NCBI GenBank assembly: GCA_039028615.1
Contig: JBCCHT010000001.1
Location: 384,001-448,000 of the forward strand
Length of the DNA stretch: 64,000 nt
Direction: 5' to 3'
Source of the DNA: Myxococcota bacterium
GTDB taxonomy: Bacteria; Myxococcota_A; Polyangia; Nannocystales; Nannocystaceae
Shown: piece after piece, positions 3,639 to 36,530 of the stretch
How positions within the stretch are numbered: position 1 is the first letter of the stretch
Layout: every line of letters begins with the position of its first letter
The notes under the pieces: model-generated
Databases searched by the model: none
The model's input: only the letters and a program-made list of their open reading frames with translations
Told to the model about the DNA's origin: nothing
Program-made: the position numbers and the translations under genes

Positions 3639-5788
3639 CCGACGAGCAAACGACCCAGCGACTCGGTCGCGTGACCCTGCACCCCGAAGGACCCGTGGTC
3701 GCGGGCGAAATCGGCGAGTGGACCCTGACCTATACGGTGGGCAGCTACGGCATCGACGAGGGCGGCACGCTGAAGATCGCCCGCCGCTTCGCCGGGGACT
3801 GGGAGCGTCCGCAGTTCGACCAGCCGCAGGCCCCCGCCTACTGCACGGTGAAGACCAACGGCGAGGCCAAGCTCGCCGCGCGCTACGACCCCAAGGCGCA
3901 CGTGCGACCGTGGATGAAGTGCATCGTCATCGACGTGTACGACGGGTGCCTCGCGCCCGGCGACGTGGTCACGATTACCCTGGGCGACCGCAGCCAGGGC
4001 TCCCCCGGCATCCGGGCGCAGACCTTCATCGAGTCGGCCCACGAGGTGCGCATGCTGGTCGATCCGACCAACGCCTGCCTCGTCCGCCGCCTGCCCACCT
4101 CTCCCGTCACCCAGATCGTGGCCGGGCCGGCCGTCGCCGTCGTGCCCATCGTGCCCACGCGCGCGGTGCAGGGCGACTCGATCGACGTATTCGTCAAGGG
4201 CGAGGACCGCTGGGGCAACCCCACCCCGCCGCCCGCAGACGTTCAGCTGCGCTGGGAGGGCGAGGGCACGGCGCAGGTCGACGGCACCACGCTGCGCGTC
4301 ACCGCCCCCGGCACGGGCCGCGTCGTCGCCACCTGGAACGGCCAGGCCTTCGAGAGCAACCCGCTGACCATCACCGCCGAGGCCGCCCAGCTCGGGCGCT
4401 ACTGGGCCGACCTGCACGCGCAGTCCGATGCGACCGTGGGCACGGGGACCGAGGTGGAGTACTTCGACTTCGGTCGTCGCCATGCCCATCTCGACGTGAT
4501 GTCGCACCAGGGCAACGACTTCCAGATGACCGACGAGGACTGGTCGCGCCTCAACGACGTGGTCCGCAAGTCGCACGAGGACGGGCGCTTCGTCGTGTTC
4601 CCCGGCTTCGAGTGGTCGGCCAACACCACCGCGGGAGGCGATCGCAACGTGGTGTATCTCGAGGAAGACCTGCCGATCATGCGATCGAGCCATTGGCAGA
4701 TTCCCGAGACCCCCGAGGACGAGCGCAGCCCGGCGCACCCCGCCAGCGACCTCTACGACAAGCTACGCGCCCACGTGGACCCGGCCAAGGTGCTCGTCGC
4801 CGCCCACTGCGGGGGTCGCTATGCCGACATCCGCAAGTACTTCGACCAGCAGCTCACCCCGCTGGTCGAGGTCTCGAGCTGCTGGGGCGTGTTCGAGTGG
4901 CTCCTGTGGGATGCCTACGAAAAGGGCTACCGCGTCGGCGTGATGTGCAACAGCGACGGCCACAAGGGTCGTCCGGGCGCCGAGGGGCCGGGCGCGGGTC
5001 AGTTCGGCATCTACGGCGGCCTCACCTGCATCCTCGCCGAGTCGCTCACCCGGGCCTCGGTGTTCCGCGCGCTCAAGGCCCGCCGCTGCTACGGGACCAC
5101 CGGACCGCGCATCGACCTCGACGTGCGCGTCGGCGACCACCCGATGGGCAGCGAGATTCGGGCCGAGGGCTCCGTGGTGGTGGACGCGAGCGTCCGCGGC
5201 ACCGGGCCCGTCGAAGCGCTGCATGTGTACCGAGGGCGCGACATCGTGCACACCGTGCGACCGCCCGCGTTCGACGACTGCGCCTCGTCGCCGAAGATCC
5301 GCTTGGTCTGGGGTGGAGCGCGGATCCGCGGCCGGGGACGGCGGGCGACCTGGGACGGCCGCATCGAGGTGCAGGGCGCGACGATCGAGCGGGCGGAGAC
5401 CTTCGCCTTCGACTCGCCCGCCGATGGCATCCGGCAGCGCGCCGCCGACTCGATCGAGTTCCGCTCGCGCACCACGGGGGACATCGATGGCATCGACGTG
5501 TGGCTCGACCAGGCGCAGACCGGACGCTTGGTGTTGCGCACGCAGACGGGCGACGTCGAGGTCGACCTCTCCACGCTCGACGCGACCGGGGTCACGCGCC
5601 AATTCGGCGGGCTCGACCTTCACGCCACCGTGGCGCGGTACCCCGCGCAGGTCGACGATCGAACGCTGCGCCTGCGCTACGCGCTGCCCGTGCAGCCCGG
5701 CGAGACCGCGGCGGTGATGGTCAAAGCGGTGCAATGCGACGGACACATGGCGTGGAGCAGCCCCGTGTACGTCGACGGCCCTGCGTAG
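3635..5788 (+). CDS. DUF3604 / PHP-fold metallohydrolase
   Basis: ATGA overlap with the upstream stop. Motifs YWADLHAQS, GFEWS, GGDRNV, NSDGHKGRPG, RRCYGTTG and AWSSPVYV. Confidence 0.8.
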   Translation: MTDEQTTQRLGRVTLHPEGPVVAGEIGEWTLTYTVGSYGIDEGGTLKIARRFAGDWERPQFDQPQAPAYCTVKTNGEAKLAARYDPKAHVRPWMKCIVIDVYDGCLAPGDVVTITLGDRSQGSPGIRAQTFIESAHEVRMLVDPTNACLVRRLPTSPVTQIVAGPAVAVVPIVPTRAVQGDSIDVFVKGEDRWGNPTPPPADVQLRWEGEGTAQVDGTTLRVTAPGTGRVVATWNGQAFESNPLTITAEAAQLGRYWADLHAQSDATVGTGTEVEYFDFGRRHAHLDVMSHQGNDFQMTDEDWSRLNDVVRKSHEDGRFVVFPGFEWSANTTAGGDRNVVYLEEDLPIMRSSHWQIPETPEDERSPAHPASDLYDKLRAHVDPAKVLVAAHCGGRYADIRKYFDQQLTPLVEVSSCWGVFEWLLWDAYEKGYRVGVMCNSDGHKGRPGAEGPGAGQFGIYGGLTCILAESLTRASVFRALKARRCYGTTGPRIDLDVRVGDHPMGSEIRAEGSVVVDASVRGTGPVEALHVYRGRDIVHTVRPPAFDDCASSPKIRLVWGGARIRGRGRRATWDGRIEVQGATIERAETFAFDSPADGIRQRAADSIEFRSRTTGDIDGIDVWLDQAQTGRLVLRTQTGDVEVDLSTLDATGVTRQFGGLDLHATVARYPAQVDDRTLRLRYALPVQPGETAAVMVKAVQCDGHMAWSSPVYVDGPA

Positions 5789-31590: not shown

Positions 31591-32463
31591 GTGGACGCCG
31601 AGCGCGAGTGGATCGCCGGGTACACCGAAGGACGTCCGGAGCTGGAGCCCGCGAGCAACCCCGACGGTGAGGCCGACGTGTGGCGCGTGTGCGTCGGTGG
31701 GCGGCCCGTCGCGTTCTTCAAGCGGCACCGAAGCTCGGACAAGTGGCATCGCGAGCGGTGGATGTTGCGACGACTCGCCGATCTGGACACTGCCGTCGCC
31801 ATCCCGACGGTGCTGGCCGATCGAGAGGCACCGCGCTGGCTGCTGCTGAGCGCTTTGCCGGGGGTCGTCGCGAGCACCGCGACCTTCGACCTCGACCAAC
31901 GACGGGCGCTGCACGAGGCGGCGGGTCGCTTCCGCCGTGACCTCGATCGACTGCCGATGGGTGAGCCCGATCCCCTGCCGCTGCCCGAAGCGCTGACCCG
32001 CCGATACCGATCATGGTCGAAGCAGGCTCGCTCCACGCTCGAGCCCGAGCTGCTGCAATCCCTCGAGCGGGCCTTCGATCCCACGGTCTTCGACCGCGAC
32101 GCTCGACGCTGGTGCCATCGCGATCTCGCCCCTCACAACTGGGTGGTCGCCGCGAGCGCCGATGGGATTCGACTCGGGGTGATCGACTTCGGCCAAGCCC
32201 GCCCGGACGCGTGGCTGGTCGATATCGTCAAGCTGTGGAGCGACGTGTGGGTCTCCGCCCCCGATCTCTCCGCATCGTTCTGGGCCGGGTACGGCCGTCG
32301 TCCCACCGACCACGAGCAAGCCCAGTTTCGCCAGCTAGCCCTGCTCCACGGCCTGGCAACGGCCACGTGGGGCGACCGACACACCCACACCCACTTCTCG
32401 CGCCACGGCCGAGCCACCCTTCGCCGTGCTCTCGATCCGCGCCCCCGCTCGCCGTGCGGGTGA
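31591..32463 (+). CDS. Aminoglycoside phosphotransferase (APH)-family kinase
   Basis: Motifs FFKRH, CHRDLAPHN, VIDFG and FWAGYG. Confidence 0.85.
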   Translation: MDAEREWIAGYTEGRPELEPASNPDGEADVWRVCVGGRPVAFFKRHRSSDKWHRERWMLRRLADLDTAVAIPTVLADREAPRWLLLSALPGVVASTATFDLDQRRALHEAAGRFRRDLDRLPMGEPDPLPLPEALTRRYRSWSKQARSTLEPELLQSLERAFDPTVFDRDARRWCHRDLAPHNWVVAASADGIRLGVIDFGQARPDAWLVDIVKLWSDVWVSAPDLSASFWAGYGRRPTDHEQAQFRQLALLHGLATATWGDRHTHTHFSRHGRATLRRALDPRPRSPCG

Positions 32464-32475
32464 TACGATGAGTCC

Positions 32476-32991
32476 ATGATTACGTGCTCTGGTTGTTCGC
32501 GTTTCGTTCGAACCGATGCGCGCCAGTGTCCTTTCTGCGAGACGCCCCTTCGCACCATGCCGGCCCCGATCACCGCGGGTCTGGCCAGCTTGCTGCTCGG
32601 CCTGACGCTGAGCGGATGCGGAGACGACTCCTCGACGGCAGACGACGGCGCCGCCGCGAGCACGACCGACGTCTCGGCAGCCACCGCAGCCGAGACCCAA
32701 AACCCGGGCATGACCACCACGCCCAACGCGACCTCGACCACCACCAACGAGCCCGACGCCGAAGCCAGCGTCGCGGCCTACGGTGGACCCGACGTCGACA
32801 CCACGCCCAACGACACCGACGAGACGGCCGACGACGGCACCACGAGCATGAGCGACGGCGGCACCACGGGCGACAGCGGAGGCACGACCGGCGAAGGCTC
32901 GGGCGACGGGATGGCGACCGACGGGATGGCGACCGAGGGCATGGCGACCGAAGGCATGCCCACCGGCGGCGGGATGCCGACCGGCGGCTAG
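32476..32991 (+). CDS. Zn-ribbon-leader lipoprotein-like protein with an AYGGP motif; candidate splicease substrate
   Basis: CSGC..CPFC at the N-terminus, LTLSGC48 lipobox, Thr/Asp-rich body, VAAY102GGP and C-terminal (D/E)GMAT repeats. Confidence 0.75.
   Translation: MITCSGCSRFVRTDARQCPFCETPLRTMPAPITAGLASLLLGLTLSGCGDDSSTADDGAAASTTDVSAATAAETQNPGMTTTPNATSTTTNEPDAEASVAAYGGPDVDTTPNDTDETADDGTTSMSDGGTTGDSGGTTGEGSGDGMATDGMATEGMATEGMPTGGGMPTGG
32905..32988 (+). repeat. 15-bp coding tandem repeat, (D/E)GM(A/P)T, about 5 copies
   Basis: gacgggatggcgacc gacgggatggcgacc gagggcatggcgacc gaaggcatgcccacc ... Confidence 0.8.
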
Positions 32992-33003
32992 CCCCGCCGC
33001 GAC

Positions 33004-34338
33004 TCAGTCCGTAGTTTCGATCGCCCGGCCGGCCCCGAAAGGCTCGGTCCGGCGGTCGACTCGTGGTTCGTCCACTCGTACCGGTCCCTCGCTTTCGCGC
33101 CGCTGCTCGTCCTTGGGCTCGCGAATCAGCCGAAACAGGCCGTTGGCGAAGGGCACGTCGGCCGCCCCGCGCACCGGCTCGATGCGCTCCCGCAGCCCCA
33201 TGCGATCCATCTCGAGCGCACGGTGGAGGCAATAGGGGTTGTTGCCCGGGCGCCCCATCAGCGGCTCGGAGGTCGCGGTGCAGCCCGACATGCAGGTCTC
33301 CGCGTAGTAGCACTCGCGGCAGTAGCCCCACAGGTCGTCGAGCGTGCGGTGCCGGGCGTAGCCGATCTCGGGCGAGCGCTCCCACAGCGCCCGCAAGCCG
33401 TGCTCGCGCCACGAGCCCCCGAGGTTGGTCGGACCACCGAGGCTCGGGCAGCTCTTGATCTGCCCGTTGCTCTCGATGCCCAGCGTGCGCACGCCCGCCT
33501 TGCACCCGGTGAAGAAGCGCCCGCCCGTCTGATGATGACGCAGGCGCTGCTCGATCGGGCCGAAGTACCCGACGTTGTTCGCCGGCCAAAGCTTGATGCC
33601 CAGCTCCTGGCAGCGGTCGACGACCGTCTCGATCTGCTCGTAGATCCCGATGAGCATGTGGGGCTGGACCAGCAGTTCCGCGTGGTCGGCCGCGTTGCCG
33701 TGCGCCATCGTGAACTGGATCTGCCACGCGTGAATGCCTTCGGCCGCCAACAGCTCCAGCAGCGGAACGAGCTCGGTCGCCGTGCGGCGATTGATCTGGG
33801 TATTGGACGCGACTGGTAGCCCTGCCGCCCGAGCGTTGCGCAACGCCGCGAACGCCCGTTGCCAGCTCCCTTCCCGGTTCCGCACGTGATCGTGGCTCGC
33901 CTCGAGCCCGTCGATCGACACCGAGACGCCCCGCAACCCCGCCTCTTTGGCCTGCTCGCAGCGCTCGGGGGTCAGCCCCCAGCCCCCCGTGGTCATGGTG
34001 ACCGACATGCCATGTTCCCGGCATGCCCGGACCACCTGCGGAAAGTCGTCGCGCAGGTAGGCTTCGCCGCCGATCAACACCACCTCGCGCACGCCCAGCT
34101 CCGCCATCTCGTCGACCAGGCGCAGACACTCGTCGGTATCGAGCTCATCCGGCCGGGCCCGCCCCGCCCGCGGACCACAGTGCAGGCACTTGTGATCGCA
34201 CAGCAGCGTGATCTCCCAGACCGCCAGCGTGGGCCGCGGTGCCTCGCCCTTGGCCAGCGGTAGCACCCGCCGGCTTCCCGGGTTCGGCAACGAAGACACG
34301 ACGGGCAGCCGTCGCCGTAGGTCGTCCTGCCCGCTCAT
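33004..34338 (-). CDS. Radical SAM/SPASM peptide maturase, PlpX/splicease-like
   Basis: AVWEITLLCDHKCLHCG.RAG, IGGEAYLR, GCKAG..LGIESNG.IK.CPSL and LWGYCRECYYAETC..GC...GNNPYC.HRALE. Confidence 0.9.
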   Translation of the reverse strand: MSGQDDLRRRLPVVSSLPNPGSRRVLPLAKGEAPRPTLAVWEITLLCDHKCLHCGPRAGRARPDELDTDECLRLVDEMAELGVREVVLIGGEAYLRDDFPQVVRACREHGMSVTMTTGGWGLTPERCEQAKEAGLRGVSVSIDGLEASHDHVRNREGSWQRAFAALRNARAAGLPVASNTQINRRTATELVPLLELLAAEGIHAWQIQFTMAHGNAADHAELLVQPHMLIGIYEQIETVVDRCQELGIKLWPANNVGYFGPIEQRLRHHQTGGRFFTGCKAGVRTLGIESNGQIKSCPSLGGPTNLGGSWREHGLRALWERSPEIGYARHRTLDDLWGYCRECYYAETCMSGCTATSEPLMGRPGNNPYCLHRALEMDRMGLRERIEPVRGAADVPFANGLFRLIREPKDEQRRESEGPVRVDEPRVDRRTEPFGAGRAIETTD

Positions 34339-34377: not shown

Positions 34378-35547
34378 CTACGCCGGTTGTTCGCCGGCCA
34401 GCAGCAGATCGGCCAGCCGCGCGAGCCCGGGCAGGTCCCGAACCTCTTCATCGAGGCGAGGCGCTCGCACCCGATGGCACTCGGCGGGCAGCTCGGCCAC
34501 CACCCCGTCGACGATCCGCTGGAAGCGCTGGTTGTCGGCCGCCGCTTCTTGTCGCAGCCCTCGCATGCGCTGTGCGACGTCGAGCAGCGCGGGGCTGGCC
34601 TCGACGCCCAGGGCCTGCACCCGGGCAGACACGTCGGTATCGTCGAGCGCGGTGCGCAGATCGTGCGGCTGGTCGGGCACGACGGGGACGAAGCTCTGGT
34701 TGAACACGACGGCGTGCACGGGCACGTCGCGACGCACGAGGTCGTCGCGTAGCCAGGCGGCATCGTCGGCGCTCGAGGGGCTGGCCGAGCTCACCAACAC
34801 GAAGGCGGTGTCCTTGGCGCGCAGGATCTGCCCCACGCGCTTGGCCCGGTCGATGAAGCCTTCCCGCAGCGAGGCGAACACGGTCAGGAAGGCGACGATC
34901 TCGTCGCGCAGCGTCGACCCGGTGACCTTGCCCAGCAGGCCCATCGCCATCTGTCCGCCCTTGGCGACCAAGCGCGCGCCGAGACCGGAGGGCTTGTCCA
35001 TGGAGGGGATGAACCAGTTGGCGATGCGACCGTCGAGGAAGGCCGCGAGGTGGTCGGGCGCGTCGAGGATGTCGAGCGCATTGCGGGCGGGCGGCGTGTC
35101 GAGCACGACGAGATCGTAGCCGCCGTGTTCGATCGCGTCGTAGAGCCGCTCCATCGCGATGTAGGCGTGCGAGCGCGACAAGGAGCGCGAGACGGCCCGG
35201 TAGACGCGGTTGTCGAGGACCCGGGCCTTGGTCTGCGCGTCGGGGGAGATTCGCTCGATGAGCGCGTCGAAGCTCGCCCCGGTGTCGACCATGGCCGCCC
35301 ACAGGCTTCCCGTGCCCGCGTCGTCCCCGAGCCTCTCCATGGGCACCCGAGCGACGGCGTCGTCGAGTCCATCGAGCGCGAGGGCGTCGGCGAGGCGACG
35401 CGCGGGGTCGATGGTGAGCACGAGCGTCTTGCGACCCGACCGCGCGGCGGCCAGGCCCAGCGCGGCGGAGACGGTCGTCTTGCCCACGCCACCGGGGCCC
35501 ACGCAGACCACCAGGGAACCGGAACCCACCAGCGCTTCGAGGCTCAT
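34378..35547 (-). CDS. ArsA/Get3-like ATPase (second of pair)
   Basis: Motifs CVGPGGVGKTT, LTIDPARRLADAL and YDLVVLDTPP; 4-nt overlap with its partner. Confidence 0.9.
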   Translation of the reverse strand: MSLEALVGSGSLVVCVGPGGVGKTTVSAALGLAAARSGRKTLVLTIDPARRLADALALDGLDDAVARVPMERLGDDAGTGSLWAAMVDTGASFDALIERISPDAQTKARVLDNRVYRAVSRSLSRSHAYIAMERLYDAIEHGGYDLVVLDTPPARNALDILDAPDHLAAFLDGRIANWFIPSMDKPSGLGARLVAKGGQMAMGLLGKVTGSTLRDEIVAFLTVFASLREGFIDRAKRVGQILRAKDTAFVLVSSASPSSADDAAWLRDDLVRRDVPVHAVVFNQSFVPVVPDQPHDLRTALDDTDVSARVQALGVEASPALLDVAQRMRGLRQEAAADNQRFQRIVDGVVAELPAECHRVRAPRLDEEVRDLPGLARLADLLLAGEQPA

Positions 35548-36530
35548 CGCGACTCCTCCACGGGGCCGAGCGCCGCGCGACCCAGGGTCTGGAGTTCTTC
35601 GACCTGCATGCGCGAGGCGGTCAGGCGGGGCAGCTCGACGACGGGTGCACAGATGGCCCCGAGCCGCTCGATCTGCCGTCGGGCGTGCTGCTCGGTGCGC
35701 ACCGACTGCTGGGCGAATACGGCGTCGGCGATGAGTTCCTCGTCGCCGCTGGCCTGGGCCGCCGCATGCAGCTGCTCGATGGCATCGGTCGCGTCGAGCA
35801 GGCCGGTGCGGGGCACCCGGTTGACGAACACGCGACCGAAGGTCACCGAGCCCGCGGACTTCAGCTTCTCGTGCAGCTCGAGCGTCTCGGTGACGGGCAG
35901 CTCGTCGGGCAGGGTCACCAAGTTGAGCCGCGTGCGCTTGGGGTCGGCAAACAGGTCGGCGACGTCGTCGAGCAGGGCTCGCATCGGGCCCGCGCCCATC
36001 AGGTGGGCAACGACGTCGCGAAGCTCGAGGAACATCAGCGCGTGTCCGGTGGCATCGAGGTCGACGAGGATCGGTCCCCATCGGTACCGGCCCGAGTCAT
36101 CGCGCTCGGACGCCAGCCGTCGCAGGGTGTTGACGGTGGCGATCTCGCCCACCGCTGGCATCGCCTTGAACAGACGATCGAGCACGGGGTTGCCCACGAT
36201 CGCCCGCGCGGTGCGACGCGACGGGATGTGCTGGACCATGTAGTCGACGACCGCCTTGTCGATCTCGACGCTCATGGCATGCACCCCGTGGCCGACCGGG
36301 CGTGGCGTGAAGCCGACCTCGTCGACGCGGAAGATGCTGCGCATCGTGGCGCGGTGGCCGAGCTCGACGACCAGCGGTCGCATGCCTCGCGACGCGGCCT
36401 CGATCGCCAACGCGGCCGTCACCGTCGACTTGCCTACCCCGCCCTTGCCCGTGAACAACAACAGGCGATGGGCAAGCAGCTCCGCCTCCGTCGCGGGAGG
36501 GGGCGTGGGGCTCGCGCTCGCGACCTGCAC
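35544..36530 (-). CDS. ArsA/Get3-like ATPase (first of pair)
   Basis: Motifs FTGKGGVGKST, DLDATGH, VTLPDELPVTET and VNR. Confidence 0.9.
   Translation of the reverse strand: MQVASASPTPPPATEAELLAHRLLLFTGKGGVGKSTVTAALAIEAASRGMRPLVVELGHRATMRSIFRVDEVGFTPRPVGHGVHAMSVEIDKAVVDYMVQHIPSRRTARAIVGNPVLDRLFKAMPAVGEIATVNTLRRLASERDDSGRYRWGPILVDLDATGHALMFLELRDVVAHLMGAGPMRALLDDVADLFADPKRTRLNLVTLPDELPVTETLELHEKLKSAGSVTFGRVFVNRVPRTGLLDATDAIEQLHAAAQASGDEELIADAVFAQQSVRTEQHARRQIERLGAICAPVVELPRLTASRMQVEELQTLGRAALGPVEESR

Follow-up and report, generated by a model that had tools for sequence, protein, structure and literature searches.

A convergent gene pair in a Nannocystaceae genome

The window analysed here is a stretch of 64,000 nucleotides (nt) from a Myxococcota bacterium of the Nannocystaceae (assembly GCA_039028615.1, contig JBCCHT010000001.1, forward-strand positions 384,001 to 448,000), whose genome is 12.3 Mb in size and 96.7% complete. 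It carries two convergent genes, one for a 444-residue radical S-adenosylmethionine (SAM) enzyme with a SPASM domain and one for a 171-residue open reading frame (ORF) with a zinc ribbon and a lipobox, which together make up a candidate splicease system, in which the enzyme would excise a tyramine equivalent from the smaller protein (Table 1). An initial annotation had drawn this outline from the sequence, and the features it named are in place: all four of its enzyme patterns are found in the larger ORF, at residues 39-59, 278-300, 336-353 and 365-375, the small ORF has Cys4, Cys7, Cys18 and Cys21, the lipobox LSGC48 and its only tyrosine at position 102 within VAAYGGP, and the convergent stop codons are 12 nt apart. 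Scanning of that gap gave no terminator-like site, and the convergent arrangement is the commonest layout of the pair, seen for 38 of 70 precursor placements.

Table 1. Features of the precursor and enzyme genes (positions within the window)
Feature	Position	Strand	Remark
Precursor (pre-lipoprotein) ORF, 171 residues	32476..32991	+	member of an unannotated Myxococcota family
Zinc ribbon, C4-x2-C7...C18-P-F-C21	32485..32538	+	modelled to dock through residues 7-10 and 19
Hydrophobic helix 32-46, signal-peptide h-region	32569..32613	+	helix in the model
Lipobox L45-S46-G47-C48	32608..32619	+	fits the L-[AST]-[GA]-C consensus (PMC3222651)
Core residues 93-109 with A101-Y102-G103-G104-P105, predicted splice site	32752..32802	+	Tyr codon 32779-32781
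Gap between convergent stop codons, 12 nt	32992..33003		
Radical SAM/SPASM enzyme, splicease clade, 444 residues	33004..34338	-	
SPASM domain, seven invariant Cys (279, 297, 340, 343, 349, 353, 370)	33214..33507	-	
GYFGPIEQ loop, residues 257-264	33547..33570	-	modelled ribbon-binding site
Radical SAM cluster motif C47-x3-C51-x2-C54	34162..34224	-	invariant in 78/78 rows

The enzyme groups with the spliceases

The initial annotation had named the NCBIfam models TIGR04103 (PlpX type) and TIGR03913 (GDL-motif peptide maturases) as a check on the enzyme. These are its best two families by far, at 414.6 bits for TIGR03913 (model positions 18-393 of 477) and 408.1 bits for TIGR04103, with AhbD next at 141 bits, TIGR04133 at 136.1 and PqqE at 87; the curated cut-offs, 591.75 and 725 bits respectively, are passed in neither case. 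Quick trees, in which TIGR04103-named homologues stood in for PlpX itself, place the enzyme in one clade with the cyanobacterial and GDL-type enzymes, apart from NirJ, Ahb, PqqE and MftC (Shimodaira-Hasegawa-like approximate likelihood ratio of 97 with 72 rows, where the outgroup branches are long, and of 99 with 39 rows), and its own subclade is long-branched with a support of 100. An origin of the PlpX-type and GDL enzymes from within the ribbon-lipoprotein enzymes was considered and set aside, with a quick-tree support of 87-89 and monophyly of the myxobacterial enzymes not rejected (P = 0.239 in the approximately unbiased test). The three radical SAM cysteines and the seven SPASM cysteines are invariant across a 78-row alignment that includes 5 TIGR04103 proteins, as are Gly257 and Gly260 of the GYFGPIEQ loop (Pro261, 76/78; Glu263, 75/78).

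Homologues of the enzyme occur in 31 of 41 relatives and, across the phylum, in 78 of 301 genomes, the closest named ones being those of Nannocystaceae and Paraliomyxa miuraensis (77-82% identity). A Nostoc TIGR04103 protein, 44% identical over 378 residues, sits in a precursor-enzyme-Y (A-X-Y) cluster, and by eye the Nostoc enzyme and its Y protein closely resemble PlpX and PlpY as given in the supplement of PMC11414181. Sequence search of the PDB gave no close solved structure, the nearest being SkfB (E = 1e-18) and PqqE (7e-16). The absence of a PlpY or RiPP recognition element (RRE; RiPP, a peptide made on the ribosome and then modified post-translationally) partner, suggested from the neighbourhood, extends to the whole genome sequence, which gave no match to PqqD/RRE models or to PlpY-like proteins, the latter sought with a narrow profile of 13 Nostocales rows and no positive control.

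The precursor is a lipoprotein-type protein

The smaller ORF encodes a zinc ribbon, a hydrophobic helix, the lipobox cysteine and a disordered stalk rich in Thr, Ser, Asp and Gly that leads to the tyrosine motif. Lys and Arg are absent beyond residue 26. It matches no NCBIfam family at E <= 0.01 and no Nif11 model, and Pfam returns weak zinc-ribbon matches only. The four ribbon cysteines and Pro19 are invariant in 70 of 70 homologues, and in the predicted structure the ribbon reaches a predicted local distance difference test (pLDDT) score of 91-92. When residues 1-26 were compared with known folds, RanBP2/NZF fingers filled the top rows (root mean square deviation 0.9-1.4 Å over 26-27 residues), with Z scores of only 2.1-2.8 and no match of 5 or more.

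The initial annotation had taken the ORF for a lipoprotein, and the homologues support this. A cysteine follows a hydrophobic, almost uncharged stretch in 92 of 94 homologous ORFs and is invariant in the precursor alignment; the residue at -1 is Ala, Gly or Ser in 91/92, Leu stands at -3 in 47/92, and the 14 residues before the cysteine carry no charge in 76/92. The genome encodes 5 Lgt and 4 LspA enzymes, so that the h-region, the lipobox and the host machinery expected of a lipoprotein are all present. In Myxococcus, Lys at +2 sorts lipoproteins to the inner membrane and Ala at +7 to the matrix (PMC3222651). The precursor, with Gly at +2 and Thr at +7, would by these rules, extrapolated across classes, be sent to the outer membrane; Lys+2 occurs in 3/92 homologues and Ala+7 in 8/92. 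A methionine lies at most 9 residues ahead of the first ribbon cysteine in 86/92 homologues, and on these alignment grounds the annotated long start, which includes the ribbon, is genuine; the shorter start at Met28, the form held in the ESM Atlas, was rejected, given that just 4/92 homologues have a methionine after the ribbon. A search of the ESM Atlas gave no match at 0.9 or above.

The precursor family keeps company with the enzyme

A family profile was built from the ribbon-to-lipobox region. In this genome, which the initial annotation had proposed to scan for further ribbon/AYG proteins, it finds 9 strong ORFs (E <= 7.6e-9; next 0.007), and what they share is a tyrosine followed by two Gly/Ala positions rather than AYG. 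Besides one broken copy, the genome has 6 full-length paralogues of the enzyme, and 5 of the 9 precursors adjoin one. The enzyme was used to retrieve 67 Myxococcota loci; a precursor ORF lies within 3 kb in 56 of them (52 in a count without duplicates, plus 4 that this count had dropped), and one has a ribbon ORF that lacks the cysteine. Across 300 genomes of the phylum, 37 give a precursor match at E <= 1e-7; the enzyme is present in 36 of them and is encoded in two frames in the remaining one. A threshold of E <= 1e-5 lets in generic ribbons and yields 58 of 73, and all these counts include kin and are not independent. The same pairing is found in the culturable Plesiocystis pacifica, Nannocystis, Enhygromyxa and Paraliomyxa. 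That the two genes are chance neighbours and the small ORF an ordinary lipoprotein is hardly credible given this co-location and co-occurrence, together with the motif enrichment and docking model described below, even though 4 of the 9 precursors are orphans, 1 of the 6 enzymes has no adjacent partner and more than 200 similar acidic lipoprotein-like ORFs exist in the genome.

Several variants of the family were seen. At a locus in the same genus (L146), two such precursors converge on the orthologous enzyme. At locus L155 (G089:C128:71000-79000), 13 YG precursors with ribbon leaders stand in tandem, and five of them end their h-region without a lipobox cysteine and look like plain secreted forms, retaining a signal-peptidase-like end. 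Deeper-branching radical SAM relatives (L025, 2605-3855; L026, 2721-3029) lie by ribbon-less lipoprotein-like ORFs with repeated YG, YA or YM motifs. In this genome (G000), the broken paralogue lies in two fragments at G000:C80:11312-12851, with a Cys-rich ORF of 179 codons and two YG motifs between them.

The tyrosine motif is conserved in a broader form than AYG

Y[GA] had been a criterion in choosing the 22 seed sequences, which were therefore left out of the motif count; of the 70 remaining homologues, 67 contain Y[GA]x[PA] (shuffled sequences: mean 4.3, maximum 13). A search of 1.84 billion representatives, in which generic multi-ribbon proteins crowded the results, gave 41 independent representatives (51 single full-length proteins kept from the best 150 matches, less 10 duplicates), 37 of which have the motif (shuffle mean 3.05, maximum 9). 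As a control, only 5 of 229 ribbon-less lipoprotein-like ORFs of this genome rich in Thr, Ser, Asp and Gly carry it. Sequence statistics of this kind indicate that the tyrosine motif is selected against a low-complexity background. AYG itself, put forward as the conserved motif, is not borne out as such: the conserved form is Y-[GA]-x-[PA], the preceding residue X being free (Asp 47, Thr 34, Ala 24 and Glu 8 of 147 sites) and Pro or Ala standing at +3 in 142/147, and the 70 homologues divide into 42 with YG only, 23 with YA only, 3 with both and 2 with neither. The XYG that defines a splice site in the literature is thus present as AYG here and as YG in 45 of the 70; YA does not figure as a splice site in the portions of that literature consulted. 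Outside the Nannocystaceae plain YG is found in 31/33 precursors and YA in none.

An alternative that shares the pair and its export is that the enzyme performs another chemistry on the tyrosine, such as cleavage, side-chain loss or cross-linking, at least at YA, DY and TY sites. It would account for YA in a third of the homologues, for the strong preference at +3 and for the long-branched subclade that falls below both family cut-offs, and the DYG site of RcsA is indeed unmodified (PMC11626197). Moreover, six loci pair one enzyme with both YG and YA precursors and the nearest orthologues swap YGGP and YAGP, and a specificity switch in the enzyme was sought in vain, no conserved column separating 35 YG-only from 16 YA-only loci. 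We nevertheless judge this alternative unlikely, since the motif cysteines and loops are all common to the TIGR04103 rows, YG prevails outside the Nannocystaceae, and splicing tolerates many X residues (PMC9811515).

In 12 of the 33 precursors outside the Nannocystaceae, YG directly follows the lipobox cysteine, which would place the lipidated residue at X in XYG. Two such Cys-Tyr-Gly precursors were noted in this genome (G000:C8:122970 and G000:C26:121496), with others at L124, L125, L127-L132, L144 and L145.

The ribbon as a proposed docking module

The complex of enzyme, precursor residues 1-48 and zinc was predicted alongside 3 controls. The docking score is 0.83 against 0.00 for the best control; the score mark is reached by 116/157 solved and 2/215 mismatched pairs, a rough guide here, where own alignments and zinc were used. 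At least 74% of contacts recur between runs, and the partner pLDDT is at least 61. Confident contacts join precursor residues 1, 3, 7-10 and 19 with enzyme residues 259-264, 275, 344-345, 348 and 372, and many of these are conserved: on the ribbon Arg9 (52/70), His, Phe or Tyr at position 10 (55/70) and Pro19, and on the enzyme the loop residues Gly260 (78/78), Pro261 and Glu263. SPASM Tyr344 touches Pro19 in the model; position 344 is Tyr in 85/89 ribbon-associated enzymes and Glu or Lys in 118/120 TIGR04103-like proteins, all of them without a ribbon, a contrast that spans two clades and so counts as one observation. The model supports docking of the ribbon on the GYFGPxE loop and SPASM surface of the enzyme.

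The same profile matches the ribbon in three other arrangements: as a free-standing gene, at the C-terminus of the enzyme and at its N-terminus. In 13 Sphingomonas-type and Thermoanaerobaculia loci an ORF of 65-68 residues, a ribbon followed by a helix, begins at the enzyme stop, in the PlpY position (L096-L099, L101-L108 and L110, at about 4120-4390, the gene overlapping the splicease stop), and a short YG peptide lies upstream where checked; these A-X-ribbon clusters are a candidate three-gene splicease system outside cyanobacteria. GDL-type enzymes of Azospirillum and Aureibacter carry the ribbon as a C-terminal tail, and a Tropicibacter plasmid enzyme carries it at the N-terminus (L114:2680-4302), in a neighbourhood with a phosphotransferase, a second radical SAM gene and two peptidases. 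The precursor and free-standing ribbons are homologous (hhalign 94.5%, 31 columns); 3 of 3 free-standing proteins tested match TIGR03913 positions 420-473 (E 3e-9 to 6e-8), as does 1 of 4 precursors at positions 426-459 (E 4e-4). In this genome just 12 places reach 15 bits on the profile, so a ribbon at the end of an enzyme is not due to chance, and a natural enzyme-ribbon fusion is predicted to fold with a predicted template modelling score of 0.81 and a ribbon pLDDT of 88-92. It had been suggested that the ribbon replaces a Nif11 leader; as a leader that docks it fits the model, and because it is also found fused to enzymes and free-standing, it more plausibly takes the place of the Y protein, or activator.

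No PlpY homology was found for either the ribbon leader or the free-standing ribbon protein, the profile probabilities being 0.04% and 0.2%, which leaves a likeness of the helices seen by eye unsupported. A related possibility is that the hydrophobic helix is an activator helix of the PlpY/RhaA kind, with an incidental lipobox and a spliced protein that stays in the cytoplasm. In its favour, the leader of the studied binary systems works through a helix (PMC11414181) and a long helix follows the free-standing and fused ribbons; yet the cysteine is invariant, the lipobox statistics and uncharged h-region are those of a signal peptide, the Cys-less members keep their signal-peptidase-like end, confident contacts of the helix are absent from the model and no profile match to PlpY-like proteins was obtained, and we regard it as very improbable.

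Proposed mechanism

Taken together, we consider it reasonably probable that the pair is a two-gene spliceotide-type system with a pre-lipoprotein substrate. In the cytoplasm, the ribbon is modelled to dock on the GYFGPxE loop and SPASM surface, taking the role of PlpY or of the RhaA leader. The enzyme would then, by analogy with the chemistry of its family, probably excise the precursor's single tyrosine, removing a tyramine equivalent (C8H9NO, -135.06 Da) at A101-Y102-G103 and leaving an alanine-derived alpha-keto-beta-amide, a reactive ketoamide on what becomes a membrane-anchored chain. Excision is placed before export because the enzyme lacks a signal peptide and the core comes to lie outside. 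As the lipobox and the host Lgt and LspA suggest, the unfolded chain would be exported and lipidated at Cys48, with loss of the ribbon and h-region, so that a 123-residue, lipid-anchored, disordered acidic stalk may display one ketoamide in the envelope. Given that ketoamides of tested spliceotides inhibit Ser/Cys proteases (PMC11626197), its most likely role would be that of a tethered inhibitor or bait for such proteases, although the ketoamide may alternatively serve as a reactive cross-linking handle. Orphan precursors are probably served in trans by paralogous enzymes.

A different fate for the product is that the lipoprotein is a carrier only, from which a protease frees a short, diffusible ketoamide peptide. 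The 17 core residues 93-109 are identical in the closest homologue (P0197) while the flanks drift to an overall identity of 56%, many homologues repeat the core 2-4 times as multi-core precursors do, and the five Cys-less members at L155 resemble plain secreted proteins. Against this, no protease or transporter recurs at the loci and the M28 peptidase and kinase of the window are not conserved, the anchor itself is X where YG directly follows the lipobox cysteine, and many members have C-terminal Cys-rich domains; a freed peptide is accordingly rather improbable.

Several observations weigh against the spliced-lipoprotein reading. The enzyme lies under both curated cut-offs, 23 of the 70 homologues have YA only and 2 have neither motif, and Asp is the commonest X although the DYG of RcsA is unmodified. 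At 10 of 67 loci there is no precursor within the flank examined, and no accessory gene recurs at the loci. The activator of the studied systems is helical, whereas the confident contacts of the model sit in the ribbon only; between the ribbon leader and PlpY-type proteins no resemblance is detectable, this precursor (P0002) has no match to TIGR03913, and generic zinc ribbons also score on the ribbon profile. A folded ribbon in place of an n-region is, in addition, unusual for Sec export.

A wider proposal can be put forward tentatively, and we hold it to be possible rather than likely: that the spliceases of Myxococcota build ribosomally made, lipid-anchored ketoamide displays in the envelope, in families of up to a dozen or more per genome; that in a widespread subgroup the lipidated Cys(+1) serves as X, to give a ketoamide derived from diacylglyceryl-cysteine at the surface of the membrane; that many of the enzymes accept Tyr-Ala; and that the ribbon, with no kinship to PlpY or PqqD, serves as a transferable recognition and activation module found on the substrate, at either end of the enzyme or as a separate gene.

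Neighbouring genes

An APH-family kinase (31591-32463, + strand) ends 12 nt before the Thr/Ser-rich precursor, and tandem ArsA/Get3-type ATPases (34378-36530, - strand) lie directly upstream of the enzyme on the same strand; the latter are BagA/BagB-like, below the cut-off, and were not found beside homologous enzymes. The APH-like kinase, the M28 peptidase and the ArsA/Get3 pair were considered as parts of the system and rejected, with matches only at the genome's own loci. Elsewhere in this genome (G000:C30:84716-86447), a Nif11-like double-glycine precursor lies directly upstream of an ORF that by eye resembles a cytochrome P450, 1.7 kb from an orphan ribbon precursor, and is possibly a separate RiPP cluster.

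Comparison with known systems

Bacteroidota have a radical SAM/lipoprotein system in which a TIGR04133 enzyme is paired with a TIGR04134 putative lipoprotein; the present enzyme scores 136.1 bits against a TIGR04133 cut-off of 425, and the precursor has no TIGR04134 match. Scott 2022 reportedly defines the spliceotide types, and the family may be catalogued there and so be partly in print already. A literature search, with Scott 2022, Vagstad 2025, Haft and Basu 2011 and Montalban-Lopez 2021 outside its scope, gave no paper joining spliceotides or tyramine excision with lipoproteins, nor one on ribosomal beta-amino acids in Plesiocystis. Available portions of the published surveys count 189 genera and 27 confirmed pairs and do not name myxobacterial lipoproteins (PMC10849128, PMC9811515, PMC11002830, PMC10533398), and as of one review no native spliceotide product or role was known (PMC9811515). 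The lipobox directs the search for a native product to membrane fractions of the culturable hosts. If the proposal is true, tyramine splicing extends from free peptides to envelope lipoproteins, and YA and Cys-YG sites join the substrate range. A 25-residue docking tag would also serve protein labelling.

The type I systems PlpX/PlpY/PlpA and PcpXYA of Pleurocapsa (TIGR04103) share with the present one the Tyr-Gly target, the radical SAM and SPASM motifs and, by eye for PlpX and PcpX, the GY[YF]GPxE loop, with 44% identity to a TIGR04103 protein. They differ in that the system here has neither a Nif11 leader nor PlpY, its substrate bears a ribbon, a signal peptide and a lipobox, its SPASM residue 344 is Tyr rather than the Glu or Lys usual in TIGR04103-like proteins, and its enzyme, at 408 bits, stays below the cut-off of 725. 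The GDL-motif maturases (TIGR03913), which act on DUF1843 precursors, are the best-scoring family and share the Tyr at the 344-equivalent; the C-terminal part of that model (420-473), missing from the enzyme here, is the same zinc ribbon. In those systems the ribbon is part of the enzyme or a protein by itself, and a short helical DUF1843 peptide is the substrate, whereas here the ribbon sits on the lipoprotein substrate. What appears to be new is this identity of one ribbon as the TIGR03913 C-terminal domain, as a free-standing gene in the PlpY position and as a lipoprotein leader.

Y is an activator, and in binary systems the leader replaces it, while fusions of X to Y and of Y to A have been engineered (PMC11414181, Richter et al.); the ribbon arrangements look like natural versions of these enzyme-activator and activator-substrate fusions. 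The candidate three-gene system lies outside cyanobacteria, where Y proteins are said to be lacking (PMC11414181). Similar in layout are the binary (type II) systems RhaX/RhaA, RcsX/RcsA and RasX/RasA of Rheinheimera, which have two genes, no Y and an enzyme-binding element borne by the leader, and for which no lipoprotein signal is reported in the available text of PMC11414181 and PMC11626197. Their element is a PlpY-like helix, and the ribbon leader here, unlike PlpY-type proteins, would on the docking model be a second, non-helical solution to splicease recognition. The system is real and conserved, probably works like a binary splicease and fits no curated family.

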